A program made the translations under genes and the position numbers. Below, one piece after another: positions 8,596-37,260 of a DNA stretch of 64,000 nt. The stretch spans positions 247,442,001-247,506,000 of the forward strand of contig NW_027362767.1 of NCBI RefSeq assembly GCF_046119375.1, given 5' to 3'. The notes beneath the pieces were generated by a model. The model did no database searches. It was not told the origin of the DNA and saw only the letters and a program-made list of their open reading frames with translations. This DNA comes from Phyllobates terribilis. Lineage: Eukaryota. Each line of letters begins with the position of its first letter. Within the stretch, counting starts at the first letter, position 1.

Positions 8596-11500
8596 TCAGG
8601 CACATAATACATGGGGAGAGGGGGTAGCCGCTGCCGGCCCCCTCATCTAGGAGGATAATACAAGGGGGGGTTGGGAAGGTCACTTCCGCTGGCCCCCGCA
8701 TCTGGTCAGAGAATACATGGGGGTGAATGCCGCTGTCTCCCACATCTGGGAGGAGAATACATGGAAGGTGAATGCTGCTGGCCCCCACATCTGGGCGTAG
8801 AATATATGGAGGATGGATGCCGCTGGCCCCCACATCTGGGCAGAGAATACATAGAGGGGTGGCTGCCGCTGGCCCCCACATCTGGGCAGAGAATACATGG
8901 AGGGTGGCTTCCGCTGGCCCCTGCATCTACGAGGAGAATACATAGAGGGTGGATGCCGCTGGCCCCCACATCTGAGCAGAGAATACTTTGAGTGTGGATG
9001 CCACTGGCCCCCACATCTGGGTGGAGAATACATGGGGGGGTGGTGGCCGCTGGCCCCCACAACTGGGCAGAGAATACATGGAAGGTGGCCGCCACTGGCC
9101 CCCACATCTGGGCAGAGAATATATGGAGGGTGGATGCCACTGGTGCCCACATCTGGGCAGAGAATACATGGAGGGTGGCTAGCGCTGGCCCCTACATCTA
9201 GGAGAATACATGGAGGGTGGATGCCACTGACCCCCACATCTAGGAGAATACATGGAGGGTGGATGCCGCTGGCCCCCACATTTGGACAGAGAATACGGAG
9301 GGTGGATGTCACTGGCCCCCACATCTGGGCGAATAATACATGGGGGGGTGCTGGCTGCTGGCCCCCACATAAGGGCGGAGAATACATGGGGGTGGATAAC
9401 GCTGACTTCCACATCTGGGAGGAGAATACATGGAGGGTGGCTGACGCAGGCCCCCAAATCCGGGCAGAGAATAAATGGGGGGTTGCTTCTGCTGGCCCCA
9501 CCATCTGGGCAGAGAATAGATGGAGGGTGGTTGCCGCAGGCCCCCACATGTGGGCAGAGAATATATGGAGGGTGGATGCTGCTGGCCCCCACATCTGGGC
9601 AGAGAATACATGGGGGGGGTGGCTGCCACTGGCCCTCATATCTGGGAGGAGAATACATGGAGGGTGGCTACCACTGGCCCCCACATCTCGGTGGAGAATA
9701 CATGGAGAATGGCTGCTCTTGGCCTCCACATCTGGGCGGGGAATACATGAAGGGTGGTCGCCGTTGGCCCCCACATGTGGGCGGAGAATACATGGAGGGT
9801 GGACGCTCCTGGAGCCCAAATATGGGTGGAGAATACATGGAGGGTGGCTGTTGCTGCCCCTACATCTGGGCGGAGAATACATGGAGGGTGGCTGCCACTG
9901 GCCCCGACATCTGGGCGGAGAATACATGGAGGGTGGCTGCCGCTGGCTCCCCCATCTGGGCAAAGAATACATGGAGGGTGGCTGCTGCTGGCCCTCACAT
10001 CTGGGCGGAGAATAAATGGGGGGTTGCTTCCGCTGGCCCCACCATCTGGGCGGAGAATAGATGGAGGATGGTTGCCACAGGCCCCCACATGTGGGCAGAG
10101 AATATATGGAGGGTGGATGCTGCTGGCCCCCACATCTGGGCAGAGAATACATGGGGGGTGGCTGCCACTGGCCCCCATATCTGGGCAGAGAATACATGGG
10201 GGGGCTGCCATTGGTCCTTACATCTGGGCGGAGAATACATTTAGGGTGGCTGCAACTGACCCCTACATCTGGGCAGATAAAACATGGAGGGTGGCTGCCG
10301 CTGGCCCCCACATCTGGGCAGAGAATACATGGGGGTTGAATGCCACTGGCCCCCACATCTGGGCCGAGAATACATGGGGGGTAGCTGCCGCTGGCCCCCA
10401 CATCTGGAAGGAGAATACATGGAGGGTGGCTACCACTGGCCCCCACATCTCGGTGGAGAATACATGGAGGATGGCTGCTCTTGGCCTCCACATCTGGGCA
10501 GAGAATACATGGAGGGTGGACGCTGCTGGAGCCCAAATATGGGTGGAGAATACATGGAGGGTGGCTGTTGCTGCCCCTACATCTGGGTGGAGAATACATG
10601 GAGGGTGGCTGCCACTGGCCCCCACATCTGGGAGGAGAATACATGGAGGATGGCTGCTCTTGGCCTCCACATCTGGGCGGGGAATACATGAAGGGTGGCC
10701 GCCGCTGGCCCCCACATGTGGGCGGAGAATACATTTAGGGTGGCTGCAACTGACCCCTACATCTGGGCGGATAATACATGGAGGGTGGCTGCCGCTGGCC
10801 CCCACATCTTGGCAGAGAATACATGGAGGGTGGATGCCGCTGGCCCCCACATTTGGGCAGAGAATACATGGAGGGTGGCTGCCCCTGGCCTCCACATAAC
10901 GGCAGAGAATAGTTGGGGGATGGATGCCGCTGGCTCCCACATCTGGGAGAATACATGGAGGGTGGATGCCGCTGGCCTACACATCGGGGCAGAGAATACA
11001 TGGGGGGTGGATACCAATGGACCCCACATCTGGGCAGAGAATAAATGGGGTGGCTTCCGCTGGCCCCCACATCTGGGCAGAGAATACATTGGGGGGTGGC
11101 TGCCATTGGCCCTTACATCTGGGCGGAGAATACATGGAGGGTGGCCGCCACTGGCCTCCACATCTGGGTGAACACATGGAGGGTGGCCGCCACATCTGGG
11201 TGGTGAATACATGGGGTGTGGATGCCACTGGCCCCCACATCCAGGCCGAGAACACATGGGGTGGGGTGGCTGCCGCTGGCCCCCACATCTGGGCGAATAC
11301 ATGGAAGGAGGATGCCGCTGTCCCCCAAATCTGGGCAGAGAATACATGGAGGGTGGATGCCACTGACCACCACATCTGGGCAGAGAATACATTGGGTGGC
11401 TTCCGCTGGCCCCCACATCTGGGCAGAGAATACATTGGGGGGTGGCTGCCATTGGCCCTTACATCTGGGCGGAGAATACATGGAGGGTAGCCACCACTGG

Positions 11501-13173
11501 CCCCCACATCTGGGTGAACACATGGAGGGTGGCCGCCACATCTGGGTGGAGAATACATGAAGGGTGACTGCCGCTGGCCCCCACATCTGAGCAGAGAATA
11601 TATGGGGGGTGGATGCAGATAGTCCAAATATCTGGGCAGAGAATACACGGGGGTGGCTGCCGCTGGCTCCCACATCTGGGCAGAGAATACATGGAGGGTG
11701 GATGCCACTGGCTCCCACATCTGGGAAAATACATGGAGGGTGGATGCCGCTGGCTGCCACATCTGGGCAGAGAATACATGGAGGGTGAATGCCACAGGCC
11801 GCTACATCTGGGCAGAGAATACATGGGGGGTGGCTGCCGTTGGCTCTTACGTCTGGGCGGAGAATACATGGAGGGTGGCCGCCACTGGCCCCAACATCTA
11901 GACGGAGAATACATGGAGAGTGGCTACCACTAGCCCCCACATCTCGGTGGAGAATACATGGAGGGCGGCTGCTCTTGGCCCCCATATCTGGGTGGAGAAT
12001 ACATGGAGGGTGGCCGCCGCTGACCCCCACATCTGGGCGGAGAATACATGCAGGGTGGCCACTGCTTGAGCCCAAATCTGGGCAGAGAATACATGGAGGG
12101 TGCTTGTTGCTCTTGGCCCCCACATCTGGGTGGAGAATACATGGAGGGTGGCCGCCGCTGACCCCCACATCTGGGCGGAGAATACATGCAGGGTGGCCAC
12201 TGCTTGAGCCCAAATCTGGGCAGAGAATACATGGAGGGTGCTTGCTGCTCTTGGCCCCCACATCTGGGCGGAGAATACATGCAGGGTGGACACTGCTTGA
12301 GTCCACATCTGGGCAGAGAATACATGGAGGGTGGATGCAGCTGGCTCCCACATTTGGGAGAAGAATACATGGAGGGTGCTTGCTGCTGGAGCCCACATCT
12401 GGGAGGATACATGGAGGGTGGCTGCCACTGGCCACTCATCTAGGCAGAGAATACATGGGGGGTGGCTGCCGTTGGCCCTTATATCTGGGAGGAGAATACA
12501 TGGAGGGTGGCCACCACTGGCCCCAACGTCTAGACGGAGAATACATGGAGGGTGGCTGCTCTTGGCTCCCACATCTGGGCGGAGAATACATGCAGGGGGG
12601 CCACTGCTTGAGCCCAAATCTGGGCAGAGAATACATGGAGGGTGGCTGTTGCTGCCCCCACATCTGGGCAGAGAATACATGGAGGGTAGCTGCTACTGGC
12701 CCCCACATCTGGGCGTAGAATACATGGAGGGTGGCTGTCACTGGCCCCCACATCTGGGCGTCGCTGCCACTGGCCCCACATCTGGGCAGAGAATTCATGG
12801 GGAGTGGCCACCGCTGACCCCCACATCTGGGAGACTACAGAGGGTGTAGCCGCCATTGGCCCTCACATCTGGGCAGAGAATACATGGAGGGTGGCTGCTA
12901 CTGCCCCTCATGTCTGGATGGAGAATAGATGGAGGGTGGCTGCTGCATGTCCCAATATCTGGGAGGAGAAGTCATGGAGGGTGGCTGCCGCTGAACCCCA
13001 CATCTGGGTGGTGAATACATGGAAGGTGGTTGCCGCTGGAGCCCACATCTGGGAGAATACATGGAGGGTGGCTGCCGCTGGCCCCCACATCTGGGAGGAG
13101 AATACATGGAGGGTGCTTGCTGCTGGAGCCCACATATGGGAGGATACATGGAGGATGGCTGCCGCTGGAGCCC
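8596..13173. repeat. 45-bp tandem repeat array 1 (about 100 units, more diverged)
   Basis: Consensus GCTGGCCCCCACATCTGGGCAGAGAATACATGGAGGGTGGCTGCC with frequent substitutions and 1-3 bp indels. Confidence 0.97.
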
Positions 13174-13640
13174 ATTTTGTGAGGGGTACAGGGTGGTAGT
13201 AGTGGCGAGGGACTGCAGTTGTTGTGCATTTGCATTCTCATCCTGACCGCCCACAAATAAAAGATAATGTCTGGTTTGTCCTGTGCTTTCCATGTCATGT
13301 AAAACACTTACAGTTTTCTGTTGCTTCTCCATCTTCTTCAGGAGTCCAGAAGTTGAATGCAAATAATCACTTGCACACTCTGTTCTTTTTATATAAAAAA
13401 ACAACTTTACTCAACTTCTTTTGTTCAGTTCTGGTCACAGATACAGCAGTCACAGTTTCAGTAGCAGATACAGTACAGCACATGTTATGTTGCTCATCCT
13501 GAGCTCTCCCTGCATTCCCTGTTACCTCAGCCTCTGCAATGCCTTCTTCTTCCAATACAGTTTTCATGATTCCTGAGCCACTATTCTGCTGTTTCAGCAT
13601 CCCACTGAACAAAGTGGCGAAGGTCCGCATACTGTATATA

Positions 13641-15202
13641 CACTGTGTGCCGAATTATTAGGCAAATGAGTATTTTGATCACATGATACTTTTTATACAT
13701 GTCGTCCTACTCCAAGCTGCATAGGCTTGAGAGCCAACTACCAATTAAGTAAATCTGAGGATGTGCATCTCTGTAATGAGGAGGGGTGTTGACTAATGAC
13801 ATCAACATCCTATATAAGGTGTGCTTAATTATTAGGCAACTTCCCTTTCCTTTGGCAAAATGGGTCAGAAGACAGATTTGACTGGCTCTGAAAAGTCCAA
13901 AATTGTGAGATGTCTTGCAGAGGGATGCAGCAGTCTTGAAAATTCCAAACTTTTGAAGCGTGATCACAGAACAATCAAGCGTTTCATGGCAAATAGCCAA
14001 CAGGGTCGCAAGAAGCATGTTGGCCAAAAAAGGTGCAAAATAACTGCCCATGAATTGAGGAAAATCAAGCGTGAAGCTGCCAAGATGCCATTCACCACCA
14101 GTTTTGCCATATTTCAGAGCTGCAACGTTACTGGAGTATCAAAAACCACAAGGTGTGCGATACTCAGGAACATGGCCAAGGTAAGGAAGGCTGAAAAACG
14201 ACCACCTTTGAACAAGAAACATAAGATAAAACGTCAAGAATGGTCCAAGAAATATCTTAAGACTGATTTTTCAAAGGTTTTATGGACTGATGAAATGAGT
14301 GACTCTTGATGGGCCAGATGGATGGGCCAGAGGCTGGATCAGTAAAGGGCAGAGAGCTCCACTCCGACTCAGACGCCAGTAAGGTGGAGGTGGGGTACTG
14401 GTATGGGCTGGTATCATCAAAGATGAACTTGTGGGACCTTTTTGGGTTGAGGATGGAGTGAAGCTCAACTCCCAGACCTACTGCCAGTTTCTGGAAGACA
14501 ACTTCTTCAAGCAGTGGTACAGGAAGAAGTTGGTATCGTTCAAGAAAAACATGATTTTCATGCAGGACAATGCTCCATCACATGCATCCAACTACTCCAC
14601 AGCGTGGCTGGCCAGTAAAGGTCTAAAAGAAGAAAAAATAATGGCATGGCCCCCTTGTTCACCTGATCTGAACCCCATAGAGAACCTGTGGTCCATCATA
14701 AAATGTGAGATCTACAGGGAGGGAAAACAGTACACCTCTCGGAACAGTGTCTGGGAGGCTGTGGTGGCTGCTGCACGCAATGTTGATGGAAAACAGATCA
14801 AGCAACTGACAGAATCTATGGATGGAAGGCTGTTGAGTGTCATCATAAAGAAAGGTGGCTATATTGATCACAAATTTTTTTGGTTTTTGGTTTTGCATGT
14901 CAGAAATGTTTATTTCTAAATTTTGTGCACTGATATTGGTTTACCTGGTGAAAATAAACAAGTGAGATGGGATTATATTTGGTTTTTATTAAGTTGCCTA
15001 ATAATTGGGCACAGTAATAGTTACCTGCACAAACAGATATCCTCCTAAGATAGCCAAATCTAAAAAAAAAAACACTCCAACTTCCAAAAATATTAAGCTT
15101 GAATATTTATGAGTCTTTTGGGTTGATTGAGAACATAGTTGTTGATCAATAATAAAAATAATCCTCTAAAATACAACTTGCCTAATAATTCTGCACACAG
15201 TG
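13641..15202 (+). mobile_element. Full-length Tc1-like DD37E (TRT-type) transposon, 1562 bp
   Basis: Ends CACTGTGTGC(C/A)GAATTATTAGGCAA (24/25 match) flanked by TA. Inner direct repeats AATTATTAGGCAAC near 13830 and 14995. Confidence 0.93.
13860..14870 (+). pseudogene. Disrupted DD37E transposase
   Basis: MGQKTDLTGSEKSKIV...VLWTDEM, frameshift near 14298, in-frame TAA in RRQ*GGGG, then MQDNAPSH...SPDLNPIENLW with 37 residues between the second D and E. Confidence 0.88.
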
Positions 15203-15367
15203 TACTACCCTTTAGTGTGCTCCTCGTACTTCCTAAGGCTCCACGCTTAGTCTGCTTCTCCTGTGTCCTCTCTTCTCACTGCATGTTTCCTGACCTTCAG
15301 CCCACTGGCCCTGAACGTCTCCTCAGTCTTCCTCCAGCACATACTTTAAAGTTACCATTAACTACGA

Positions 15368-16156
15368 TGTTACGGATCCGGGTGGTGGAACCTCTGTGCT
15401 GCGGTGCAAGGAGGGACCAGAGGGGCATAACTAGGTATCAACTCGGACTGACCAAGGTCGCACGGCGGCTCAATCGACTCCGTGAACCAGGGAAGGACCG
15501 AGCAGAGGGACCAGGTGCTACTCTGGACCAGTCCTTGTATGAGAGCAGGTGACTCCTATGGGACAGAAGGCAGGGACTGACCGGTACAGCAGAAGAGCAC
15601 AGCAGGCAGGCTAAAGGGGGATCCGGGTAGACGGACTGGCAGACTCCACGGGTAACTGGCAGGAGCCTCCAGGTAGGCTGGCTGGTAGGCACGACAGGTA
15701 ACTGGTATGTTCTCCGGGTAGACAGGCAAGATTGGCCCATAGACAGACTGGCGGGTTTGGACCGTAGGCAGACCGTCGGGCTGGAGAGTGTACTTGTTGG
15801 CGGAGACAGGTAGTCAGGCTGGCGGACTGGACTAGTAGTCAGGCTGGCGGACTGGACTGGTAGTCAGGCTGGCGGACTGGACTGGTAGTCAGGCTGGCGG
15901 ACTGGACTGGTAGGCTGGCGGACTGGACTGGTAGGCTGGCGGACTGGACTGGTAGTCAGACTAGCAGCGGGACCTTAGGGCTGAAGCAGAGTTTAGAACA
16001 CAAAGCTACAACCTTGCACGGGTACCTCCATTTTGGAGGAGATGCCTTTTATATGAGAAGTCCTCCGGCCATTGGCTGGGGACTCCTTATGACGGCGCGC
16101 GGTGGTAAGGGGAACGGCGTCTCTGCCTGTCAGGGGGCAGAGACGCCGATACTACA
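15368..16156 (-). repeat. 3' LTR of the Gypsy element (789 bp, 113-bp U3 deletion, internal 25-bp tandem repeats)
   Basis: Near-identical to 19808-20689 (about 9 differences in the first 250 bp compared). Contains GGACTGGACTGGTAGTCAGGCTGGC repeats. Confidence 0.95.
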
Positions 16157-19100
16157 GTACCCCCCACCCTTTACACCCCCTCTTTTTTAGGTCTGAAAGA
16201 ATTTTTTTAAGGAGAAGAGGGGCGTGGATGTTCTCCCTGGGTTCCCAAGTTCTCTCCTCTGGGCCAAACCCCTTCCAATCCACCAGAAAAAAAGGTTTTT
16301 CCTCTTACTCTCTTGGTGGCCAGAATGTTCTCTACCTCATAGACGTCCTCAGCGGAGACCGGAGCTGGGGAGGCACCTGGATCGTCGGAAAAATAATTAA
16401 GAACAACTGGTTTGAGGAGAGATACGTGGAAGGAGTTGGGAATCCGTAAGGTGGCCGGGAGTTTTAACTTGTAGGCCACTGGATTGATTTGCTTGAGGAC
16501 TTCAAATGGACCGATGAACCGTGGACCCAGCTCATAGGAGGGTATTTTGAGACGAACATGTTTGGAGGAGAGCCAAACCTTGTCTCCCGGACGGAATTGA
16601 GGTGGGTCCAGACGTCTCTTGTGGGCATGTCTCTTCATCCGCTCAGAGGATTGAAGAAGTGCGGATCTAGTGTCCTCCCAAATGGTGGAAAATTTGATGA
16701 CCAGAGACTCCGCAGCAGGGTTGTCCACTGAAGCGGAGACGGCAAACCGAATCCAGGGATCTTGACCGTAGACCACAAAGAACGGGGACTTGGAAGAAAA
16801 TTCGCTCTCATGGTTGTTATAGGAGAACTCGGCCCATGGTAAGAGCTCTGCCCAATCGGTATGGTGAGCGTTGACGAAGTGTCCGGAGGAAGCTGGTAAG
16901 GATCTGGTTGATACGTTCCACTTGGCCATTGGACTGTGGATGGTAAGCAGAGGAGAAATCCAGGGTGACATCCAGCAGCTTACGCATAGCTCTCCAGAAG
17001 AGCGAAGTAAACTGGACCCCGCGATCAGACACAATGTGGAGGGGTAGGCCGTGAAGACGGAAGATGTGATGGATGAAGTCCTTAGCCAGCACAGATGCAG
17101 ACGGGAGACCAGGCTGAGGGATAAAGTGGGCCATTTTAGAAAAGCGGTCAGCGACCACCCAAATGACAGTACAACCGGCAGAAACAGGGATATCAGTCAT
17201 AAAGTCCATAGCAATGTGTTGCCACGGGGCAGCAGGTACGGGAAGAGGCAGGAGATGGCCGGCTGGAAGATGTCTGGGAACCCTGTTGCGAGCACAGGAC
17301 GAACAGGCCGTGATGAAGTCTACCACATCCTTGAGCAGGGTAGGCCACCAGTAATGCCGGGTAATGAGCAGGAAGGTCTTCTTCTGGCCAGCATGGCCGG
17401 CTAGTTTAGACGAATGACCCCAGTGAAGAACCTTCTTACGATCCGGAACTGCCACAAATGTCTTACCAGGTGGGAGACGAGACAGGTCCAAGGGAGCCAC
17501 ATTCATCACTTTGGAGGGATCGATGACATGCATAGGCTCCTCCTCTAGATCGGAAGACAGGAAGGATCGGGACAAGGCGTCGGCTTTAACGTTCTTGTCC
17601 GCAGGGCGGTAAAGTAGGGGAAAGTTGAAGCGGGCGAAGAACAAAGACCACCGGGCCTGACGCGGATTGAGTCTTTGGGCATTCTGTAGATATGCAAGGC
17701 TTTTGTGGTCAGTGTAGATGACCACCGGATGCAGAGCCCCCTCTAAAGCAGGTAACGCCACTCCTCCAGCGCCAATTTGATGGCTAGAAATTCTCGTTCT
17801 CCTATGGAATAGTTGCGCACGTACGAAGAGAAGAGCTTGGAGAAGAAGCCGCAGGTTACCATTCTCCCGAACGGAGATTTCTGGGTGAGCACCACTCCGG
17901 CTACGGAAGAGGAAGCATCAACCTCCAGAAAAAACTGTTTGTTGCAATCCGGATGGTGCAGCACCGGGGCAGAAGAGAAGGCTTGTTTTAAGGAAAGGAA
18001 GGCCTCCTCCGCTTCAGACGTCCATTCCTTAGGATTTACTCCCTTACTGGTGAGCGCAGAGATGGGTGCAATCCAGGAAGAGAAATGTGGGATGAAGAGA
18101 TGGTAATAGTTAGTGAAGCCCAGGAATCGCTGAATCGCCTTCAACCCCTCCGGACGGGGCCACTTTAAGACGGCAGAGACCTTCTCGGGGTCCATCCGTA
18201 GAGCTGTCTTAGCGATAATATAGCCCAGGAACGGAAGAGAGGACTGCTCGAAGAGTCATTTCTCAAATTTTGCATATAGGTGATTCTGCCTGAGCCTAAG
18301 CAGGACCTGACGAACATCCCTCCGGTGTGTGGGAAGATCCGGAGAGAAGACCAAGATGTCATCCAGGTACACCACCATGCAAGAATATAAGAGGTCACGG
18401 AAGATGTCGTTAACTAGATCTTGGAAGACGGCTGGAGCATTACAGAGGCCGAAGGACATCACACGGTATTCATAGTGGCTGTCCCGGGTATTGAAAGCCG
18501 TCTTCCACTCGTCTCCTTGGCGGATCCGGACCAAGTTATACGCCCCACGAAGATCGAGCTTGGTAAAGATTTTTGCGCCATTAAGGCGGTCGAACAGCTC
18601 AGAGATGAGCGGCAGGGGGTATTTATTTTTGATAGTAATCAGGTTGAGTCCTCTATAATCAATGCAGGTGCGTAGTGAACCGTCTTTCTTTTTTACGAAG
18701 AAGAATCCAGCTCCAGCCGGGGAGGTAGATTTCTGGATGAATCCTCTAGCCAGATTTTCTTCGATGTACTCCGACATGGCCCGGGTTTTGGCCAACGACA
18801 AAGGGTAGATACGCCCACGAGGTGGAGTGGCACCGGGTACCAGGTCGATAGGGCAATCATATGGCCTATGAGGTGGCAATGTCTCTGCTTCCTTCTTGTC
18901 GAAGACATCTGCATAGGACCAGTAAGGTGCCAGTAGACCAGGTAAATTAGCCGGAGAAGACGGATGATGAACCGGGCGAACCGGAACCAGGCAGGTCTCA
19001 TGGCAATCCTGCCCCCAACAGAGCACCTCACCGGATTGCCAATTCAGAACGGGTTCATGTCTCTGTAGCCAGGGTAGACCTAGCAAAAGGGAGTGAGAGA

Positions 19101-19794
19101 GTCCGGATAGCACATGGAAGGAGATCCTCTCCGAGTGCAGCATTCCCACCTGAAGGGTTACGGGCTCAGTGACAAGCAAGATAGTCACTGGAAGGAGTCA
19201 TCCATCCACGGAAGCGACTGTCAATGGTTCAGCCAGAAGCAAGGGTACGGAACGGTATGGCATATTGGCCCACGATGAGACTCCCTTGGCGGAGACGGAG
19301 CAATGAGGAGGCAGTAGAAGTCCTTCGTCCGGGCTCATCGAAGACCCTCCGGAAGGCAGAGAGGAAAGCCGGATGGTCGGACACCAGGGAATCCCCTCTC
19401 TCCCATAGAGGGTTTAGCCATGCCAATGCTTCCCCGGTGAGGTGAGACATGATGAACGCCACCTTGGCCCGGTCGGAGGGAAACTGATGTGCCAGTAGTT
19501 CAAAGTGCAGAATGCACTGGTTCAGAAAACCCCGAAATAAGATGGGGTAACCCCAAAAAGAGGAGGCGCAGAGAGCCGGGGTCCTGAGCTGGATGCCGTG
19601 GTACTGGTAGGCAGAGGCGCTGACGGAGTGGGTGTCGCTCGACTCGAGGTGGGCACTGGTGGGACAGACAGAGTGTCCAGGCGAGAGTTGACAGACCGCA
19701 GGTAGGTCAGTATGGTTTCCTGTTGGGATCTCTGATGAGAAACCTCCTGGTACAGGTCAGCAAGCGAAGGAGCCTGGGGGCCACCGGGTTCCAT
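16157..19794 (-). pseudogene. Frameshifted gag-pol: partial Gag, C-terminal half of protease, RT (YLDD), RNase H, integrase (HHCC, DDE, GPF), chromodomain
   Basis: ORFs 19522..19794 and 19229..19462 (gag), 18256..19188 (PR end plus RT), 17743..18195 (RH, LEVDAS), 16817..17761 and 16207..17034 (IN). YEVENILATKRVRG..LVDWKGFGPEERTWEP chromodomain with a homopolymer frameshift near 16290. Confidence 0.93.
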
Positions 19795-19807
19795 GGCCCG
19801 TGCAAAC

Positions 19808-20689
19808 TGTTACAGATCCGGGTGGTGGAACCTCTGTGCTGCGGTGCAAGTAGGGACCAGAGGGGCATAACTAGGTATCAACTCGGACTGACCAAGGTCG
19901 CACGGCGGCTCAATCGACTCCGTGAACCAGGGAAGGACCGAGCAGAGGGACCAGGTGCTACTCCGGACCAGTCCTTGTATGAGAGCAGGTGACTCCCACG
20001 GGACAGAAGGCAGGGACTGATCGGTACAGCAGAAGAGCACGGCAGGCAGGCTAACGGGTGATCCGGGTAGACGGACTGGCAGACTCCACGGGTAACTGGC
20101 AGGAGCCTCCAGGTAGGCTGACTGGTAGGCATGGCAGGTAACTGGTATGTTCTCCGGGTAGACAGGCAAGACTGGCCCATAGACAGACTGGTGGGTTTAG
20201 ACCGTAGGCAGACCATCGGGCTGGAGAGTGCACTTGCTGGTGGAGACAGATAGTCAGGCTGACGGACTGGACTAGTAGTCAGGCTGGTGGACTGGATTGG
20301 TAGTCAGGCTGGCGGACTGGACAGGTAGTCAGGCTGGCGGACTGGTAGTCAGGCTGGCGTACTGGACTGGTAGTCAGACTAGCAGCGGGACCTGAGGGCT
20401 GAAGCAGAGTTTAGAACACAAAGCTACAACCTTGCACGGGCACCTCTATTTTGGAGGAGGTGCCTTTTATATGAGAAGTCCTCCGGCCATTGGCCGGGGA
20501 CTCCTTAGATCGGCGCGCGCGGCCCCTTTAAGAGGGAGGGAGCGCAAGCGTGCCCTATGCACGGTGCCTGGGAAGCTGCGAGCGCCGGCAGCAGTAGCAG
20601 CAGGAGAGCCAGAAGACGCCGGGCGGGGATCGCGGCGGTAAGAGGGACGGCATCTCTGCCTGTCAGGGGGCAGAGACGCCGATACTACA
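19808..20689 (-). repeat. 5' LTR of the Gypsy element (882 bp)
   Basis: On the minus strand: CCAAT near 20490, TATAAAA at 20471-20465 and a predicted TSS near 20441. Confidence 0.95.
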
Positions 20690-21109
20690 TACGACATCTC
20701 TGACAGAACTGATTCCTGACAGGAAAAACTGTTGCTCCCCTCTGGCCCAAACTCCTCCCCCTTTTTTAACTGGACCAATCAGCAACCGACTCCACTGGTC
20801 GCTGGGCAAACTTCTTCCTTCAACAATGAACTGCCATATTCACCCACTTATAACGTGCACTAAACTTCCTATACTCTAAACTCTGCCTTATCTTCTATAT
20901 ACTAGTAGGCCACCGCTGCCTATCAGCCCCAATATTCCTATCAATTCATAACTAAACACTAGGCAATATGCTATGCTTTCCCTATATACTATATATAAAT
21001 AACATTATACATTTCATTACACTACTGTCACAAGAAGACAAGAGACCCACAAACAACAAAAACTGTTTAGTAAGGGAGAGGAGCATGACAGCGTCTGTCA
21101 CCCCCTTAC

Positions 21110-24100
21110 ACCCACATCTGGGTGGACAATACATGGAGGGTGGCTACCGCTGGCCCCCGCATCTGGGTGGAGAATAGATGGAGCGTGGCTACTGCATGGC
21201 CCCATATCAGGGCGGAGAGTACATGGAAGGTGGCTGCCGCAGGCCCTCACATCTTGGCAGATGCCGCAGGCCCTCACACACATCTCGGGGGTGAATAGAT
21301 GGAGGGTGGCCGCCGCATGCCCCAATATCTGGGCAAACAATTCATGGAGATTGTCTGCCACTGGTCCCTATATCTGCGTGGAGGGTGGCCGCCGCTAGAC
21401 CCCACATCTGGGAGGAGAATACATGGAGGATGGCTGCCGCTGGAGCTCACATCTGGGAGAATACATGAAGGGTGGCTGCAGCTGGCCCCCACATTTGGCG
21501 GAGTTACATGGAGGATGGCTGCCGCTGGCCCCCACATCTGAGTGAAGAATACATGGAGGGTGGCTGCAGCTGGCCCTCACGTCTGGCGGAGAATACATGG
21601 AGGGTGGCCACCGCATGCCCCAATATCTGGGCAGAGATTACATGGAGGGTGGCTGCCACTGGAGCCCACATCTGAGGGGAGGATACATGGAGGGTGGCTG
21701 CCGCTGGAGCCCAAATCTGGGCGGAGAATACATGGAGGATGACTGCCCCTGTACCCCGCATCTGGGAGAATACATGGAGGATGGCTGCCACTGGCCCCCA
21801 CATCTGGGTGTAGAATACATGGAGGGTGACTGCCGCTGGCTTTCACATCTGGCGGAGAATACATGGAGGGTGGATGCCGCTGGCCCTCACATCTGGCGGA
21901 GGATACATGGAGGGTGGCTGCCCCTGGCCCCCACATCTGGGGGAGAATACATGGAGGGTGGATGCCGCTGGCCCCCACATCTGGGGAGAGAATACATGGA
22001 GGGTGGCTGCCGCTGGCCCTCACATCTGGGTGGTGAATACATGGAGGGTGGATGCCGCTGGCCCCCACACCTGGGGGGAGAATACATGGAGGGTGGATGC
22101 CGCTGGCCCCCCCATATCTGGTTGGAGAATACATGGGGGGTGGCTGCCGCTGGCCCCCACATCTGGTGGAGAATACATGGAGGGTGGATGCCGCTGGCCC
22201 CCACATCTGGGGGGAGAATACATGGAGGGTGGACGCCGCTGGCCCCCACATCTGGGGAGAGAATACATGGATGGTGGATGCCGCTGGCTCCCACATCTGG
22301 GGAGAGAATACATGGAGGGTGGCTGCTGCTGGCCCCCACATCTGGGTGCTGAATACATGGAGGGTGGATGCCGCTGGTCCCCACACCTGGGGGGAGAATA
22401 CATGGAGGGTAGCTGCCGCTGGCCCCCACATCTGAGTGGTGAATACATGGAGGGTGGATGCCGCTGGCCCCCACACCTGGGGAGAGAATACATGGAGGAT
22501 GGCTGCCGCTGGCCCCCACATCTAGTGGAGAATACAAGGAGGGTGGATGCCGCTGGCCTCCACATCTGGGGGGAGAATACATGGAGGGTGGATGCCGCTG
22601 GCCCCCACATCTGGGGAGAGAATACATGGAGGGTGGCTGCCGCTGGCCCTCACATCTGGGTGGTGAATACATGGAGGGTGGATGCCGCTGGCCCCCACAC
22701 CTGGGGGGAGAATACATGGAGGGTGGATGCCGCTGGCCCCCACATCTGGTTGGAGAATACATGGGGGGTGGCTGCTGCTGGCCCCCACATCTGGTGGAGA
22801 ATACATGGAGGGTGGACGCCGCTGGCCCCCACATCTGGGGAGAGAATACATGGATGGTGGATGCCGCTGGCTCCCACATCTGGGGAGAGAATACATGGAG
22901 GGTGGCTGCTGCTGGCCCCCACATCTGGGTGGTGAATACATGGAGGGTGGATGCCGCTGGTCCCCACACCTGGGGGGAGAATACATGCAGGGTGGCTGCC
23001 GCTGGCCCCCACATCTGAGTGGTGAATACATGGAGGGTGGATGCCGCTGGCCCCCACACCTGGGGAGAGAATACATGGAGGATTGCTGTCGCTGGCCCCC
23101 ACATCTAGTGGAGAATACATGGAGGGTGGAAGCCGCTGGCCTCCACATCTAGCATCTAGTGGAGAATACATGGAGGATGGCTGCCGCTGGCCCCCACATC
23201 TGGGGGGAGAATACATGGAGGGTGGATGCCGCTGGCCCCCACATCTGGGGAGAGAATACATGGAGGGTGGCTGCCGCTGGCTCCCACATCTGGGTGGTGA
23301 ATACATGGAGGGTGGATGCCGCTGGCCCCCACATCTGGGGGGAGAATACATGGAGGGTGGATGCCGCTGGCCCCCACATCTGGTTAGAGAATACATGGGG
23401 GGTGGCTGCCGCTGGCCCCCACATCTGGTGGAGAATACATGGAGGGTGAATGCCGCTGGCCCCCACATCTGGGGGGAGAATACATGGAGGGTGGACGCCG
23501 CTGGCCCCCACATCTGGGGAGAGAATACATGGATGGTGGATGCCGCTGGCTCCCACATCTGGGGAGAGAATACATGGAGGGTGGCTGCCGCTGGCCCCCA
23601 CATCTGGGTGGTGAATACATGGAGGGTGGATGCCGCTGGTCCCCACACCTGGGGGGAGAATACATGGAGGGTGGCTGCCGCTGGCCCCCACATCTGAGTG
23701 GTGAATACATGGAGGGTGGATGCCGCTGGCCCCCACACCTGGCGAGAGAATACATGGAGGATGGCTGCCGCTGGCCCCCACATCTAGTGGAGAATACATG
23801 GAGGATGGCTGCCGCTGGCCCCCACTTCTAGCATCTAGTGGAGAATACATGGAGGGTGGCTGCCGCTGGCCCCCACATCTGGGGGGAGAATACATGGAGG
23901 GTGGATGCCGCTGGCCCCCTCATCTGGGGAGAGAATACATGGAGGGTGGTTGCCGCTGGCCCCCACATCTGGTGGAGAATACATGGAGGGTGGCTGTCGC
24001 TGGCCCCCACATCTGGGGGGAGAATACATGGAGGGTGGCTGCCGCTGTACCCCGCATCTGGGAGAATACATGAAGGGTGGCTGCAGCTGGCCCCCACATC

Positions 24101-27100
24101 TGGCGGAGATTACATGGAGGATGGCTGCCGCTGGCCCCCACATCTGGGTGAAGAATACATGGAGGGTGGCTGCCGCTGGTCCTCACGTCTGGCGGAGAAT
24201 ACATGGAGGGTGGTCACCGCATGTCCAAATATTTGGGCAGAGATTACATGGAGGGTGGCTGCCGCTGGAGCCCACATCTGGGCGGAGAATACATGGAGGA
24301 TGACTGCCCCTGTACCCCGCATCTGGGAGAATAAATGGAGGATGGCAGCCACAGGCCCACACATCTGGCGGAGAATAAATGGAGGGTGGATGCCGCTGGC
24401 CCTCACATATGGCGGAGGATACATGGAGGGTGGCTGTCACTGGCCCCCACATCTGGGGGTAGAATACATGGAGGGTGGATGCCGCTGGCCCCCATGTATG
24501 GGGGGAGAATACATGGAGGGTGGATGCCGCTGGCCCCTACATCTGGGGGGAGAATACATGGAGGGTGGCTGCCGCTGGCCCCCACATCTGTGGGGAGAAT
24601 ACATGGAGGATGGCTGCCGCTGGCCCCCACATCTGGGGAGAGAATACATGGATGATGGCTGCCGCTGGCCCCCACATCTAGTGGAGAATACATGGAGGGT
24701 GGCTGCCGCTGGCCCCCACATCTGGGGGGAGAATACATGGAGGGTGGATGCCGCTGGCCCCCACATCTCGGGGGAAAATACATGGAGGGTGGATGCCGCT
24801 GACCCCCACATCTGGGGGGAGAATATACGGAGGGTGGACGCCGCTGGCCCCCACATCTGGGGAGAGAATACATGGATGGTGGATGCCGCTGGCTCCCACA
24901 TCTGGGGAGAGAATACATGGAGGGTGGCTGCCGCTGGTCCCCACACCTGGGGGGAGAATACATGGAGGGTGGCTGCCGCTGGCCCCCACATCTGAGTGGT
25001 GAATACATGGAGGGTGGATGCCGCTGGCCCCCACACCTGGGGAGAGAATACATGGAGGATGGCTGCCGCTGGCCCCCACATCTAGTGGAGAATACATGGA
25101 GGATAGCTGCCGCTGGCCCCCACTTCTAGCATCTAGTGGAGAATACATGGAGGATGGCTGCCGCTGGCCCCCACATCTGGGGGGAGAATACATGGAGGGT
25201 GGATGCCGCTGGCCCCCTCATCTGGGGAGAGAATACATGGAGGGTGGTTGCCGCTGGCCCCCACATCTGGTGGAGAATACATGGAGGGTGGCTGCCGCTG
25301 CCCCGCATCTGGGAGAATACATGAAGGGTGGCTGCAGCTGATTCCCACATCTGGCGGAGATTACATGGAGGATGGCTGCCGCTGGCCCCCACATCTGGGT
25401 GAAGAATACATGGAGGGTGGCTGCCGCTGGTCCTCACGTCTGGCGGAGAATACATGGAGGGTGGTCACCGCATGTCCAAATATTTGGGCAGAGATTACAT
25501 GGAGGGTGGCTGCCGCTGGAGCCCACATCTGGGCGGAGAATACATGGAGGATGACTGCCCCTGTACCCCGCATCTGGGAGAATAAATGGAGGATGGCAGC
25601 CACAGGCCCACACATCTGGCGGAGAATAAATGGAGGGTGGATGCCGCTGGCCCTCACATATGGCGGAGGATACATGGAGGGTGGCTGTCACTGGCCCCCA
25701 CATCTGGGGGTAGAATACATGGAGGGTGGATGCCGCTGGCCCCCATGTATGGGGGGAGAATACATGGAGGGTGGATGCCGCTGGCCCCTACATCTGGGGG
25801 GAGAATACATGGAGGGTGGCTGCCGCTGGCCCCCACATCTGTGGGGAGAATACATGGAGGATGGCTGCCGCTGGCCCCCACATCTGGGGAGAGAATACAT
25901 GGATGATGGCTGCCGCTGGCCCCCACATCTAGTGGAGAATACATGGAGGGTGGCTGCCGCTGGCCCCCACATCTGGGGGGAGAATACATGGAGGGTGGAT
26001 GCCGCTGGCCCCCACATCTCGGGGGAAAATACATGGAGGGTGGATGCCGCTGACCCCCACATCTGGGGGGAGAATATACGGAGGGTGGACGCCGCTGGCC
26101 CTCACATCTGGGGAGAGAATACATGGATGGTGGATGCCGCTGGCTCCCACATCTGGGGAGAGAATACATGGAGGGTGGCTGCCGCTGGTCCCCACACCTG
26201 GGGGGAGAATACATGGAGGGTGGCTGCCGCTGGCCCCCACATCTGAGTGGTGAATACATGGAGGGTGGATGCCGCTGGCCCCCACACCTGGGGAGAGAAT
26301 ACATGGAGGATGGCTGCCGCTGGCCCCCACATCTAGTGGAGAATACATGGAGGATGGCTGCCGCTGGCCCCCACTTCTAGCATCTAGTGGAGAATACATG
26401 GAGGATGGCTGCCGCTGGCCCCCACATCTGGGGGGAGAATACATGGAGGGTGGATGCCGCTGGCCCCCTCATCTGGGGAGAGAATACATGGAGGGTGGTT
26501 GCCGCTGGCCCCCACATCTGGTGGAGAATACATGGAGGGTGGCTGCCGCTGCCCCGCATCTGGGAGAATACATGAAGGGTGGCTGCAGCTGATTCCCACA
26601 TCTGGCGGAGATTAAATGGAGGATGGCTGCCGCTGGCCCCCACATCTGGGTGAAGAATACATGGAGGGTGGCTGCCGCTGGTCCTCACGTCTGGCGGAGA
26701 ATACATGGAGGGTGGCCACCGCATGCCCCAATATTTGGGCAGAGATTACATGGAGGGTGGCTGCCGCTGGAGCCCACATCTGGGCGGAGAATAAATGGAG
26801 GATGACTGCCCCTGTACCCCGCATCTGGGAGAATAAATGGAGGATGGCAGCCACAGGCCCTCACATATGGCGGAGGATACATGGAGGGTGGCTGTCGCTG
26901 GCCCCCACATCTGGGGGTAGAATACATGGAGGGTGGATGCCGCTGGCCCCTACATCTGGGGGGAGAATACATGGAGGGTGGCTGCCGCTGGCCCCCACAT
27001 CTGTGGGGAGAATACATGGAGGATGGCTGCCGCTGGCCCCCACATCTGGGGAGAGAATACATGGATGATGGCTGCCGCTGGCCCCCACATCTAGTGGAGA

Positions 27101-30100
27101 ATACATGGAGGGTGGCTGCCGCTGGCCCCCACATCTGGGGGGAGAATACATGGAGGGTGGATGCCGCTGACCCCCACATCTGGGGGGAGAATACTAGGAG
27201 GGTGGCTGCTGCTGGCCCCCACATCTGGGTGGTGAATACATGGAGGATGGATGCCGCTGGCCCCCACACCTGGGGGGAGAATACATGGAGGGTGGCTGCC
27301 GCTGGCCCCCACATCTTGGTGGTGAATACATGGAGGGTGGATGCCACTGGCCCCCACACCTGGAGAGAGAATACATGGAGGGTGGCTGCCGCTGGCCCCC
27401 ACATATGGGGGGAGAATACATGGAGGATGGCTGCCACTGGCCCCCACATCTGGGGGCAGAATACATGGAGGATGGCTGCCGCTGGCCCCCACATCTGGGG
27501 AGAGAATACATGGAGGATGGCTGCCGCTGGCCTCCACATCTAGTGGAGAATACATGGAGGGTGGCTGCCGCTGGCCTCCACATCTGGGGGGAGAATACAT
27601 GGAGGGTGGATGCCGCTCGCCCCCACATCTGGGGGGAAAATACATGGAGGGTGGATGCCGCTGGCCCCCACATCTGGGGGGAGAATACATGGAGGGTGGA
27701 TGCTGCTGTCCCCCACATCTGGTGGAGAATACATGGAGGGTGGCTGCCGCTGGCCCCCACATCTAGTAGAGAATATATGGAGGGTGGATGCCACTGGCCC
27801 CCACATCTGGGGGGAGAATACATGGAGGGTGGATGTCGCTGGCCCCCACATCTGGGGGGAGAATACATGGAGGGTGGATGCCGCTGGCCCCCACATCTGG
27901 GGAGAGAATACATGGAGGGTGGCTGCCGCTGGCCCCCACATCGGGTGGTGAATACATGGAGGGTGGATGCCGCTGGCCCTCACACCTGGGGAGAGAATAC
28001 AAGGAGGATGGCTGCCGCTGGCCCCCACATCTAGTGGAGAATACATGGAGGATGGCTGCCGCTGGCCCCCACTTCTAGCATCTAGTGGAGAATACATGGA
28101 GGATGGCTGCCGCTGGCCCCCACTTCTAGCATCTAGTGGAGAATACATGGAGGATGGCTGCCGCTGGCCCCCACATCTGGGTGGTGTATACATGGAGGGT
28201 GGATGCCGCTGTCACCCCCCACACACCTGGGGGGAGAATACATAGAGGGTGGCTGCCGCTGGCCCCCACATCTGGGTGGTGAATACATGGAGGATGGCTG
28301 CCGCTGGCCCCCACATCTAGTAGAGAATACATGGAGGGTGACTGCCGCTGGCCTTCACACGTGGGGGGTGAATACATGGAGGGTGGTTGCCGCTGGCCCC
28401 CATATCTGGGTGGTGAATACATGGAGGGTGGATGCCGCTGGCCCCCACATCTGGGTGGTGAATACACGGAGGATGGCTGCCGCTGGCCCCCACATCTAGT
28501 GGAGTATACATGGAGGATGACTGCCGCAGGCCCCCACATCTGGGGGGAGAATACATGGAGGGTGGTTGCCACTGGCCCCCACATCTGGGTGGTGAATACA
28601 TGGAGGGTGGATGACGCTGGCCCCCACATCTGGGTGGTGAATACACGGAGGATGGCTGCCGCTGGCCCCTACATCTAGTGGAGAATACATGGAGGGTGGA
28701 TGCCGCTGGCCCCTACATCTGGGGGGAGAATACATGGAGGGTGGCTGCTGCTGGCCCCCACATCTGGGTGGTGAATACATGTTGGATGGCTGCCGCTGGC
28801 CCCCACACCTGGGGGGAGAATACATGGAGGGTGGCTGCCGCAGGCCCCCACAACTAGTGGAGAATACATGGAGGGTGGATGCAGCTGGCCCCCACATCTG
28901 GGGGGAGAATACATGGAGGGTGGCTGCCACTGGCCCCCACATCTGGGTGGTGAATACATGTTGGATGGCTGCCGCTGGCCCCCACACCTGGGGGGAGAAT
29001 ACATGGAGGGTGGCTGCCGCTGGCCCCCACATCTGGGTGGTGAATACATGTTGGATGGCTGCCGCTGGCCCCCACATCTGGGGGGAGACTACATGGAGGG
29101 TGGCTGCCGCTGGCCCCCACATCTGGGTGGTTAATACATGTTGGATGGCTGCCGCTGGCCCCCACATCTGGGTGGTGAATACATGGAGGGTGGTTGCCGC
29201 TGGCCCCCACATCTGGGTGGTGAATACATGCAGGGTGGATGCTGCTGGCCCCAACACCTGGGGGGAGAATACATGGAGGGTGGCTGCCGCTGGCCCTCAC
29301 ATCTGGGTGGTGAATACACGGAAGATGGCTGCCGCTGGCCCCCACATCTGGTGGAGAATACATGGAGGGTGGATGCCGCTGGCCCCCACATCTGGGGGGA
29401 GAATACATGGTGGGTGGATGCCGCTGGCCCCCACATCTGGTGAGAGAATACATGGAGGGTGGTTGCCGCTGGCCCCCAAACCTGGGTGGTGAATACACGG
29501 AGGGTGGCTGCCGCTGGCCCCCACATCTAGTGGAGTATACATGGAGGATGACTGCCGCTGGCCCCCACATCTGGGGGGAGAATACATGGAGGGTGGTTGC
29601 CACTGGCCCCCACATCTGGGTGGTGAATACATGGAGGGTGGATGACGCTGGCCCCCACATCTGGGTGTTAAATACACGGAGGATGGCTGCCGCTGGCCCC
29701 CACATCTAGTGGAGAATACATGGAGTGTGGATGCCGCTGGCCCCTACATCTGGGGGGAGAATACATGGAGGGTGGCTGCTGCTGGCCCCCACATCTGGGT
29801 GGTGAATACATGGAGGGTGGCTGCCGCTGGCCCCCACATCTGGGTGGTGAATACATGTTGGATGGCTGCCGCTGGCCCCCACACCTGGGGGGAGAATACA
29901 TGGAGGGTGGCTGCCGCTGGCCCCCACAACTAGTGGAGAATACATGGAGGGTGGATGCAGCTGGCCCCCACATCTGGGGGGAGAATACATGGAGGGTGGC
30001 TGCCGCTGGCCCCCACATCTGGGTGGTGAATACATGTTGGATGGCTGCAGCTGGCCCTCACACCTGGGGGGAGAATACATGGAGGGTGGCTGCCGCTGGC

Positions 30101-33100
30101 CCCCACATCTGGGTGGTGAATACATGTTGGATGGCTGCCGCTGGCCCCCACACCTGGGGGGAGAATACATGGAGGGTGGCTGCCGCTGGCCCCCACATCT
30201 GGGTGGTTAATACATGTTGGATGGCTGCCGCTGGCCCCCACATCTGGGTGGTGAATACATGGAGGGTGGTTGCCGCTGGCCCCCACATCTGGGTGTTGAA
30301 TACATGCAGGGTGGATGCCGCTGGCCCCAACACCTGGGGGGAGAATACATGGAGGGTGGCTGCCGCTGGCCCTCACATCTGGGTGGTGAATACACGGAAG
30401 ATGGCTGCCGCTGGCCCCCACATCTGGTGGAGAATACATGGAGGGTGGATGCCGCTGGCCCCCACATCTGGGGGGAGAATACATGGTGGGTGGATGCCGC
30501 TGGCCCCCACATCTGGTGAGAGAATACATGGAGGGTGGTTGCCGCTGGCCCCCACACCTGGGTGGTGAATACACGGAGGGTGGCTGCCGCTGGTCCCCAC
30601 ATCTAGTGGAGAATACATGGAGGGTGACTGCCACTGGCCTTCACTTCTGGGGGGAGAATACATGGAGGGTGGTTGCCGCTGGCCCCCACATCTGGGTGGT
30701 GAATACATGGAGGGTGGATGCCGCTGGCCCCCACACCTGGGGGGAGAATACATGGAGGGTGGCTGCCGCTGGCCCCCACATCTGGGTGGTGAATACATGG
30801 AGGGTGGTTGCCACTGGCCCCCACACCTGGGGGGAGAATACATGCAGGGTGGCTGCCGCTGGCCCCCACATCTGGGTGGTGAATACATGTTGGATGGCTG
30901 CCGCTGGCCCCCACATCTGGGTGGTGAATACACGGAGGATGGCTGCCGCTGGCCCCCACATCTAGTGGAGAACACATGGAGGGTGACTGCCGCTGGCCTT
31001 CACATCTGGGGGGAGAATACATGGAGGGTGGTTGCCGCTGGCCCCCACATCTGGGTGGTGAATACATGGAGGGTGGATGCCGCTGGCCCCCACACCTAGG
31101 GGGACAATACATGGAGGGTGGCTGCCGCTGGCCCCCACATCTGGGGGGAGAATATATGGAGGGTGGTTGCCGCTGGCCCCCACATCTGGGTGGTGAATAC
31201 ATGGAGGGTGGATGCCGCTGGCCCCAACACCTGGGAGGAGAATACATGGAGGGTGGCTGCTGCTGGCCCTCACATCTGGGTGGTGTATACACGGAGGATG
31301 GCGGCCGCTGGTCCCCACATCTGGTGGAGAATACATGGAGGGTGGATGCCGCTGGCCCCCACATCTGGGGGGGAGAATACATGGAGGGTGGCTGCCGCTG
31401 GCCCCCACATCTGGTGAGAGAATACATGGAGGGTGGTTGCCGCTGGCCCCCACACCTGGGTGAATACACGGAGGATGGCTGCCGCTGGCCCCCCTCATCT
31501 AGTGGAGAATACATGGAGGGTGACTGCCGCTTGCCTTCACATCTGGGGGGAGAATACATGGAGGGTGATTGCCGCTGGCCCCCACATCTGGGTGGTGAAT
31601 ACATGGAGGGTGGATGCCGCTGGCCCCCACACCTGGGGGGAGAATACATGGAGGGTGGCTGCCGCTGGCCCCCACATCTGGGTGGTGAATACATGGAGGG
31701 TGGTTGCCGCTGGCCCCCACATCTGGGGGGAGAATACATGGAGGGTGGCTGCCGCTGGCCCCCACATCTGGGTGGTGAATACATGTTGGATGGCTGCCGC
31801 TGGCCCCCACATCTGGGTGGTGAATACACGGAGGATGGCTGCCGCTGGCCCCCACATCTAGTGGAGAATACATGGAGGGTGGATGCCGCCGGCCCCCACA
31901 TCTGGGGGGAGAATACATGGAGGGTGGCTGCCGCTGGCCCCCACATCTGGGTGGTGAATACATGTTGGATGGCTGCCGCTGGCCCCCACACCTGGGGGGA
32001 GAATACATGGAGGGTGGCTGCCGCTGGCCCCCACATCTGGGTGGTGAATACATGTTGGATGGCTGCCGCTGGCCCCCACGCCTGGGGGGAGAATACATGG
32101 AGGGTGGCTGCCGCTGGCCCCCACATCTGGGTGGTGAATACATGTTGGATGGCTGCCGCTGGCCCCCACATCTGGGTGGTGAATACATGGAGGGTGGCTG
32201 CCACTGACCCCCACATCTGGGTGGTGAATACATGTTGGATGGCTGCCGCTGGCCCCCACACCTGGGGGGAGAATACATGGAGGGTGGATGCCGCTGGCCC
32301 CCACATCTGGGTGGTGAATACATGTTGGATGGCAGCCGCTGGCCCCCACATCTGGGTGGTGAATACATGGAGGGTGGCTGCCGCTGGCCCCCACATCTGG
32401 GTGGTGAATACATGTTGGATGGCTGCCGCTGGCCCCCACATCTGGGTGGTGAATACATGGAGGGTGGCTGCCGCTGGCCTTCACATCTGGGGGGAGAATA
32501 CATGGAGGGTGGCTGCCGCTGGCCCCCACATCTAGTGGAGAATACATGGAGGGTGGCTGCCGCTGGCCCCCACATCTGGGGGGAGAATACATGGAGGGTG
32601 GATGCCGCTGGCCCCCACATCTCGGGGGAAAATACATGGAGGGTGGATGCCGCTGACCCCCACATCTGGGGGGAGAATACACGGAGGGTGGACGCCGCTG
32701 GCCCCCACATCTGGGGAGAGAATACATGGATGGTGGATGCCGCTGGCTCCCACATCTGGGGAGAGAATACATGGAGGGTGGCTGCCGCTGGCCCCCACAT
32801 CTGGGTGGTGAATACATGGAGGGTGGATGCCGCTGGCCCCCACACCTGGGGAGAGAATACATGGAGGATGGCTGCCGCTGGCCCCCACATCTAGTGGAGA
32901 ATACATGGAGGATGGCTGCCGCTGGCCCCCACTTCTAGCATCTAGTGGAGAATACATGGAGGATGGCTGCCGCTGGCCCCCACATCTGGGGGGAGAATAC
33001 ATGGAGGGTGGATGCCGCTGGCCCCCTCATCTGGGGAGAGAATACATGGAGGGTGGTTGCCGCTGGCCCCCACATCTGGTGGAGAATACATGGAGGGTGG

Positions 33101-35803: not shown

Positions 35804-36199
35804 GTCGTGCGTTTTCCCATCAAAAGTGATGACAACAGCACAGACCCCCATTCTGCGGAGGGTGAGGGCCTCTGGGGACACCCTTTTTAACCCTTCAATA
35901 GCTGGTCTTTATAGAGGGTGGAGCTGCACATTTTAGACCTTGCAGCAATGCCATAGAGCGGCGATCTGGTTGCAGGACACTGTTCCCAGGGGGCTGTAGT
36001 TTTGCAGTATTATCTGACCTGGGCACTGGCAGGGCTTGCTGGGAGTTGGTGTTTGGCACGTTGGGGGCTCATAGCCACAGACTATAGTAGAGGAGGGGTC
36101 ATCATCACCTAGACCGCATCATTAACACTTTCTCTTCATGCGACGCCATTTGTTTTAACCCATTTGTGTCCTTGTGCTAAAATCCTAAATAAACAAGTG

Positions 36200-36809: not shown

Positions 36810-37260
36810 GCCGCCCTCAGTGCCCATCTAATGTATAATGACTGGCCCATCTAATGTATAATGACTGGTGGACGTGGTAATATTGTATATGCTGCCCTCA
36901 GTGCCCATCTAATGTATAATGACTGGTGGACGTGGTAATATTGTATGTGCTGACCCTCAGTGCCCATCTAATGTATAATGACTGGTGGATGTGGTAATAT
37001 TGTATGTGCTGACCCTCAGTGCCCATCTAATGTATAATGACTGGTGGACGTGGTAATATTGTATGTGCCGCACTCAGTGCCCATCTAATGTATAATGACT
37101 GGTGGACGTGGTAATATTGTATGTGCTGACCCTCAGTGCCCATCTAATGTATAATGACTGGTGGATGTGGTAATATTGTATGTGCCGCCCTCAGTGCCCA
37201 TCTAATGTATAATGTCTGGTGGATGTGGTAATGTTGTATGTGCCGCCCTCGGTGCCAATC
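36810..37260. repeat. 58/59-bp minisatellite (about 7 copies) in CIZ1 intron 1
   Basis: Unit CCCTCAGTGCCCATCTAATGTATAATGACTGGTGGAYGTGGTAATATTGTATGTGC.., with GTGCCC anchors at 36901, 36960, 37019, 37077, 37136 and 37194. Confidence 0.92.

Follow-up and report, generated by a model that had tools for sequence, protein, structure and literature searches.

A decayed chromodomain retrotransposon in the window

The window, a 64,000-nt stretch of the Phyllobates terribilis assembly, carries a dead copy of a chromodomain Ty3/gypsy element on the minus strand (20689-15368), flanked by a 5-bp TSD (Table 1). Its Pfam matches run in the order DUF4939/Retrotrans_gag, RT, RNase H, integrase, Tf2-like SH3 and chromodomain (PF00385). 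This domain order with a C-terminal chromodomain, the TG...CA LTRs, the polypurine tract and the 5-bp TSD are those of a chromovirus, with the protease partly deleted; relative to a Xenopus relative, approximately 200 codons from the end of gag and the start of the protease are absent from the window copy. A PDB search with the gag piece of the window gave no match. Aligned over 767 columns, the two LTRs show 41 differences. Both also contain a 25-bp tandem repeat (20201-20384 and 15761-15969) that differs in copy number, and LTR length is highly variable between copies.

The closest named proteins are from dendrobatid frogs (identity up to 91%), followed by those of other frogs and fish, which supports the anuran host assumed in the original prediction for this locus. 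In a quick tree of 71 rows, built from RT only, with five rows omitted for short or missing RT and with no named Tf1, sushi-ichi or Amn-san element among them, the window falls among frog and fish proteins and is separated from plant proteins (SH-aLRT 95-98). Both this placement and the domain order agree with the group in which self-priming is reported, and the element is probably a member of the vertebrate Tf1/sushi group. The family to which it belongs, designated family A, is abundant: its junction has 19,827 exact 24-mer matches across the 10.6-Gb host assembly.

Arrays of a 45-bp tandem repeat lie on both sides of the element (8686-13174, ca. 91 copies; 21379-35804, ca. 321 copies) and account for many spurious ORFs in the window. 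Inverted repeats of 27 bp near the 3' LTR (13639-13672 and 14987-15204) possibly mark a small DNA transposon, and near-perfect 58-bp and 31-bp minisatellites are found at 36845-37261 and 54688-55405.

Table 1. Features of the element, with window coordinates
Feature	Coordinates	Strand	Basis
Left TSD copy, TCGTA, 5 bp	20690..20694	-	sequence
What we take to be a CCAAT box	20489..20493	-	sequence; label assumed
5' LTR, TG...CA, 882 nt	19808..20689	-	repeat pair, TSD
TATA box, TATAAAA; first T 30 nt upstream of first paired G	20465..20471	-	sequence
9-bp inverted repeat from past the TATA box to R +3, straddling the predicted start	20439..20464	-	shuffle p 0.003, 3/3 family-A copies
Predicted self-primer, R nt 1-10, GCCCGTGCAA; predicted TSS 20441	20432..20441	-	covariation; start inferred
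R nt 12-19, weak partner of LTR end and spacer (candidate second pretzel duplex)	20423..20430	-	p<0.05 in 4/13 representatives, not in the window
U5 arm of the U5-leader stem, GGTTCCA	19826..19832	-	complementarity
2-nt spacer GT between the LTR-terminal CA and the PBS; putative integrase-trimmed dinucleotide	19806..19807	-	2 nt in all eight PBS types; role inferred
PBS, 10 nt, TTGCACGGGC, complement of R 1-10	19796..19805	-	sequence, covariation
Leader arm of the U5-leader stem, TGGAACC, overlapping the gag ATG (19794-19792)	19787..19793	-	complementarity
gag remnant (DUF4939, Retrotrans_gag, Ty3_capsid), frameshifted and cut by a deletion	19232..19794	-	Pfam
pol remnant (partial protease, RT, RNase H, integrase, Tf2-like SH3, chromodomain), with stops and frameshifts	16200..19227	-	Pfam
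Polypurine tract, ending ...TAC, upstream of the 3' LTR	16157..16181	-	sequence
3' LTR, 789 nt, U3 shorter, R +1 = A not G (16023)	15368..16156	-	LTR comparison
Right TSD copy, 5 bp	15363..15367	-	sequence

The primer-binding site is complementary to the predicted start of the element's own RNA

The 5' LTR ends in CTGTAACA at 19808, and its terminal CA is followed by GT (19807-19806), TTGCACGGGC (19805-19796), a single C and the gag ATG (19794-19792). The letters and coordinates of the original prediction are each present in the sequence; its rendering of the junction as GT-TTTGCACGGGC counted T19806 twice, the actual order being G and then TTTGCACGGGC. The PBS comprises bases 3-12 beyond the LTR. 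Its exact 10-nt complement starts 30 nt past the first T of TATAAAA, with GCCCGTGCAAG beginning at 20441, and occurs once in the 882-nt LTR. Of 20,000 base-shuffled LTRs, 27 contained a perfect 10-mer at any position, a count that does not require it to lie at TATA+30. The duplex had been put at 11 bp: in this copy there are indeed 10 Watson-Crick pairs followed by a G:U eleventh, whereas the family-wide duplex is 10 bp behind a 2-nt spacer, and the eleventh position is U-U in the dominant subfamily (15/15 in one set and 29/29 in another). The G-to-A change at +1 of the 3' LTR was also read correctly. Because +1 is G in the 5' LTR of 8 of 9 other close copies, the A is likely a private decay.

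The distance from the best TATA-like word to the first paired G is 30-32 nt in 13 of 13 representatives (the word matching 5-8 of 8 letters), and all 13 have a pyrimidine-purine step at -1/+1. This spacing agrees with mouse CAGE data, in which functional TATA boxes are reported at -32 to -29 (PMC1779604). As judged from sequence, the best indirect sign of where the RNA would begin is that pairing stops at the same G in every family. Four sets of assembled contigs of presumed type, aligned to 20380-20700, gave no peaks of starts or ends, in material where such peaks would not be visible.

The inverted repeat at the predicted start is weak in family B and absent from most other families. Only in the U3-R copy, at the RNA's 3' end, could it form a hairpin, and R nt 1-3 would then be covered. 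Families A and B also share a motif just upstream of +1 (window 20442-20454, minus strand) that is absent in families C-G and, we presume, resembles a YY1 site. A double role of TATAAA as poly(A) signal was considered and rejected, as the hexamer is missing in most family-A copies; a search of the window LTR for AATAAA found none.

R and the primer-binding site covary across families

We retrieved 100 loci by three Pfam domains, hand-picked for score variety and long frames, and excluded one locus without a gag/pol match and 13 small-contig, plant-like loci, which left 87 including the window. The repeat pair together with an exact 5-bp TSD was the sole criterion for the LTR ends, and 37 of the 87 passed. 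In register 3-12, a perfect 10/10 complement was found within the element's own 5' LTR in 32 of these 37; four of the remaining five score 9/10 and one scores 7/10 (10/10 against its 3' LTR). Other registers fare differently: 2-11 is perfect in 7/37, and those starting at 1, 4, 5 or 6 are perfect in 0/37. Among the 36 copies that score 9 or 10, each of positions 3-12 is Watson-Crick paired in 35 or 36, position 2 opposite R11 forms a Watson-Crick pair in 8 copies, a G:U pair in 13 and no pair in 15, and position 13 pairs with R -1 in none.

The 32 perfect copies represent eight PBS sequences, all with a 2-nt spacer. Seven of the 10 columns vary, with at least 14 changes, every one of which is mirrored in R. 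As members of one subfamily are not independent of each other, the number of independent observations comes to approximately 14 changes among eight types. An additional 20 loci, obtained via a distant frog protein, were all family A where readable and added no new families; four failed the filter, and the 16 that passed comprised 14 at 10/10, one at 9/10 and one false LTR pair. A further candidate regularity, a mirroring between the spacer and the dinucleotide ahead of the 3' LTR, was rejected: it is true in family A (GT/AC) and fails in families B-G.

The excluded small-contig elements are chromoviruses with large LTRs. In the tree, where five were placed, their RT clusters with that of sunflower and Tanacetum, and they likely represent plant contamination of the assembly. 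Three of them have a TGG-type PBS and, taken as a control, no comparable match in the LTR.

Covariation within families

The within-family test was anchored on the promoter rather than on R. In family A, an A at the variable PBS site is accompanied by T in R in 11/11 copies (10 of the 11, the window included, having been chosen by likeness to the window), and a T in the PBS by A in R in 29/29. In family B, 18/18 and 16/17 readable copies matched, the anchor being missing in 5/40. Two within-family A/T swaps are mirrored in R, and each is counted as one event because the copies of a subfamily share descent. The covariation between the R 5' end and the PBS that the original prediction proposed to look for is therefore found both across and within families.

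Rare variants with C or G at the variable PBS site number 18 genome-wide. The change is uncompensated in 14 of the 14 readable copies; of the others, one has a deletion in R and three are without the promoter anchor. We read the uncompensated variants as post-insertion changes that speak neither for nor against self-priming.

Flanking stems and folding of the leader

Two further pairings had been proposed around the primer helix. The 7-bp duplex between R nt 12-18 and CUGUAAC at the U5 end is present in the letters of this copy, but it needs a T that is private to this 5' LTR; the 3' LTR and 9/9 other close copies carry C there. The stem between R and the LTR end is strong in families C and D, whereas in the window its shuffle p is 0.35. 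The pairing of U5 GGTTCCA with TGGAACC over the gag AUG is present, and in most families its two arms change together, reading GGTTCCA/TGGAACC in A, GACTCCT/AGGAGTC in C and GACTCCA/TGGAGTC in G. A broad-window test of the U5-leader stem gave p<0.05 in 2/13 representatives, and a tighter test, devised after inspection of the data, gave p<0.05 in 9/14, family B not among them.

Folding of the leader, also proposed with the original prediction, did not recover the primer helix in a global fold by a program without a pseudoknot model. The minimum-energy fold of the window leader excludes the helix (z 0.59), which has a mean pair probability of 0.19 and a forcing cost of 1.0 kcal/mol. Among 15 representatives, the helix probability exceeds 0.85 in four, and nested folding gives the cis helix no preference in 11. 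Because the U5-leader stem crosses the primer helix, the proposed structure as a whole is a pseudoknot and hence invisible to nested folding. In families C, D, F and G, a stretch of U5 within the U5-leader stem can alternatively base-pair with the PBS (p<0.05 in 5/13), and the resulting hairpin may hide the PBS.

Proposed self-priming and its alternatives

By analogy with Tf1, we consider it very probable that this family primes reverse transcription with the predicted first 10 nt of its own RNA. The inference of self-priming in the original prediction is supported by the R/PBS covariation together with the fixed TATA spacing. Each step of the scheme is modelled on Tf1. Pol II would start at the G 30 nt past the TATA box, and R nt 1-10 would anneal to bases 3-12 past the LTR. 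The flanking stems, R with the LTR end and U5 with the gag start, would complete a pseudoknotted 'pretzel' of the Tf1 type. The RNase H of RT would then cut after nt 10 (or 11), RT would extend over the 2-nt spacer into U5, and integrase would later remove the two spacer bases. If the primer is copied into plus-strand DNA, it would carry changes in R to the PBS, which could explain the tight coupling of the two.

Could the primer be a fragment of a host tRNA or some other small RNA of the host, the match to R being secondary? Priming by half-tRNAs is known in copia lineages (PMC6317226), and the PBS of family B is similar to the TGG-type site in the plant-like elements. Nevertheless, the eight PBS sequences each track their own R, which one host RNA could not do, and this reading is highly improbable. 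A PBS for the 3' end of a mature tRNA requires TGG, and a search of the first 8 nt after the LTR found TGG in 0/37 TSD-confirmed elements. The absence of a tRNA-type TGG site noted in the original prediction thus holds in the window and beyond it. The comparison of the PBS with host tRNAs that it called for covered four sequences (two initiator-type Met, Ala and Asn), and the longest Watson-Crick run was 4-6 nt. One host tRNA cluster contains initiator-type Met, Ala and Asn genes plus a Tyr/Thr-like gene; an Rfam search of the host, covering 7 of 30 loci, returned tRNA-Lys arrays only.

The R/PBS pairing might instead be structural, acting in packaging, dimerisation or translation control at the gag AUG, with priming achieved otherwise. 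The U5-leader stem does cover the gag AUG, and in families C, D, F and G the PBS can be hidden by the alternative U5 hairpin. Against this, all types place the helix where a primer is required, at a distance of 2 nt from the end of the LTR, and its far end coincides exactly with the predicted 5' end of the RNA; no alternative primer site was found, and in Tf1 this layout has been tested as the priming mechanism (PMC7175516). We give a purely structural role very little credence. A lesser departure from the scheme is a primer other than a cis-cut 10-mer, either because the RNA starts a few bases upstream or because priming occurs in trans from a second packaged RNA. The 5' end is a predicted one, the cis helix gains no preference from nested folding in most representatives, and base 2 pairs with R11 in 21/36 copies, so that an 11-mer is possible in some families. 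The pyrimidine-purine step and canonical TATA spacing in 13/13 representatives argue for the start at the paired G, however, and base 2 is unpaired in 15/36 copies and throughout the dominant subfamily. A longer or uncut 5' end is thus unlikely, and it would alter details while leaving the conclusion of self-priming intact.

Origin and significance of the primer-binding site

The family-B junction, GTATCAGAGC-GC-CAGG, equals the plant-like PBS after its TG, plus a GC insertion, and has 628 exact 21-mer matches. From the letters, this likeness may be a relic or chance. A broader proposal can be framed, in which vertebrate chromoviruses use a capped, TATA-placed 10-nt self-primer of fixed geometry and the U3-R hairpin of family A hides the primer's 3' copy. 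In this proposal the PBS descends from a site for initiator tRNA, family B and the plant-like PBS sharing 14 bases with one 2-nt insertion, and thereby records a switch from tRNA priming to self-priming. We regard this proposal as speculative and rather doubtful.

The mechanism itself is already known: the Tf1/sushi 'pretzel' rests on experiments in fission yeast and was proposed for vertebrates from pairing potential. Our data do not reveal a new one, and the covariation is what they add. Compensatory changes among eight PBS types in one frog genome provide comparative evidence for self-priming in vertebrates, and the comparison fixes the geometry as a 10-mer (predicted to be capped), a 2-nt spacer and a predicted start at TATA+30. 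A family with approximately 20,000 intact junctions in a 10.6-Gb genome has likely spread without a host tRNA. Tools for finding LTR elements that filter on a tRNA-based PBS would overlook such elements.

Comparison with known and proposed self-priming elements

The vertebrate Tf1/sushi group was reportedly studied by Butler et al. in 2001. It corresponds to the GyDB V-clade (sushi-ichi, Amn-ichi/ni/san), vertebrate chromoviruses like the elements described here. Self-priming, with a 'pretzel' of three duplexes, is said to be common to the Tf1/sushi group (10.1101/2022.12.06.519325), and both have been proposed for its vertebrate members (10.1101/2022.12.06.519325, PMC6317226, PMC4600332). Yeast and vertebrate members are described as self-priming, and moss Tcn1 is predicted to be so (PMC6317226, PMC4600332). 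Amn-san chromoviruses are reported to be the commonest LTR elements of frogs, and the terms 'PBS' and 'primer binding' do not occur in that paper (PMC4131045). Judged by titles and the openings of abstracts, in a literature containing few subscription papers, we found no report of R/PBS covariation in amphibian elements.

Tf1 and Tf2 of Schizosaccharomyces pombe are, like the frog family, chromodomain Ty3/gypsy elements with a PBS complementary to the RNA 5' end, which in the frog is a predicted one. The Tf1 primer is reported to be the first 11 bases, cut between 11 and 12 (PMC7175516), and the Tf1/Tf2 'pretzel' has three duplexes with stems adjacent to the PBS (10.1101/2022.12.06.519325, PMC7175516), whereas the flanking stems of the frog elements vary by family. 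Many frog copies have a single open frame of approximately 1,500 codons, whereas members of the group outside fission yeast are said mostly to use -1 frameshifting (10.1101/2022.12.06.519325). For Tcn1 of mosses and club mosses, self-priming has been predicted in 83% of 1,500 elements, with a 5-bp TSD as here (PMC6317226). Tcn1 differs from the frog family in having plant hosts and mostly separate gag and pol frames.
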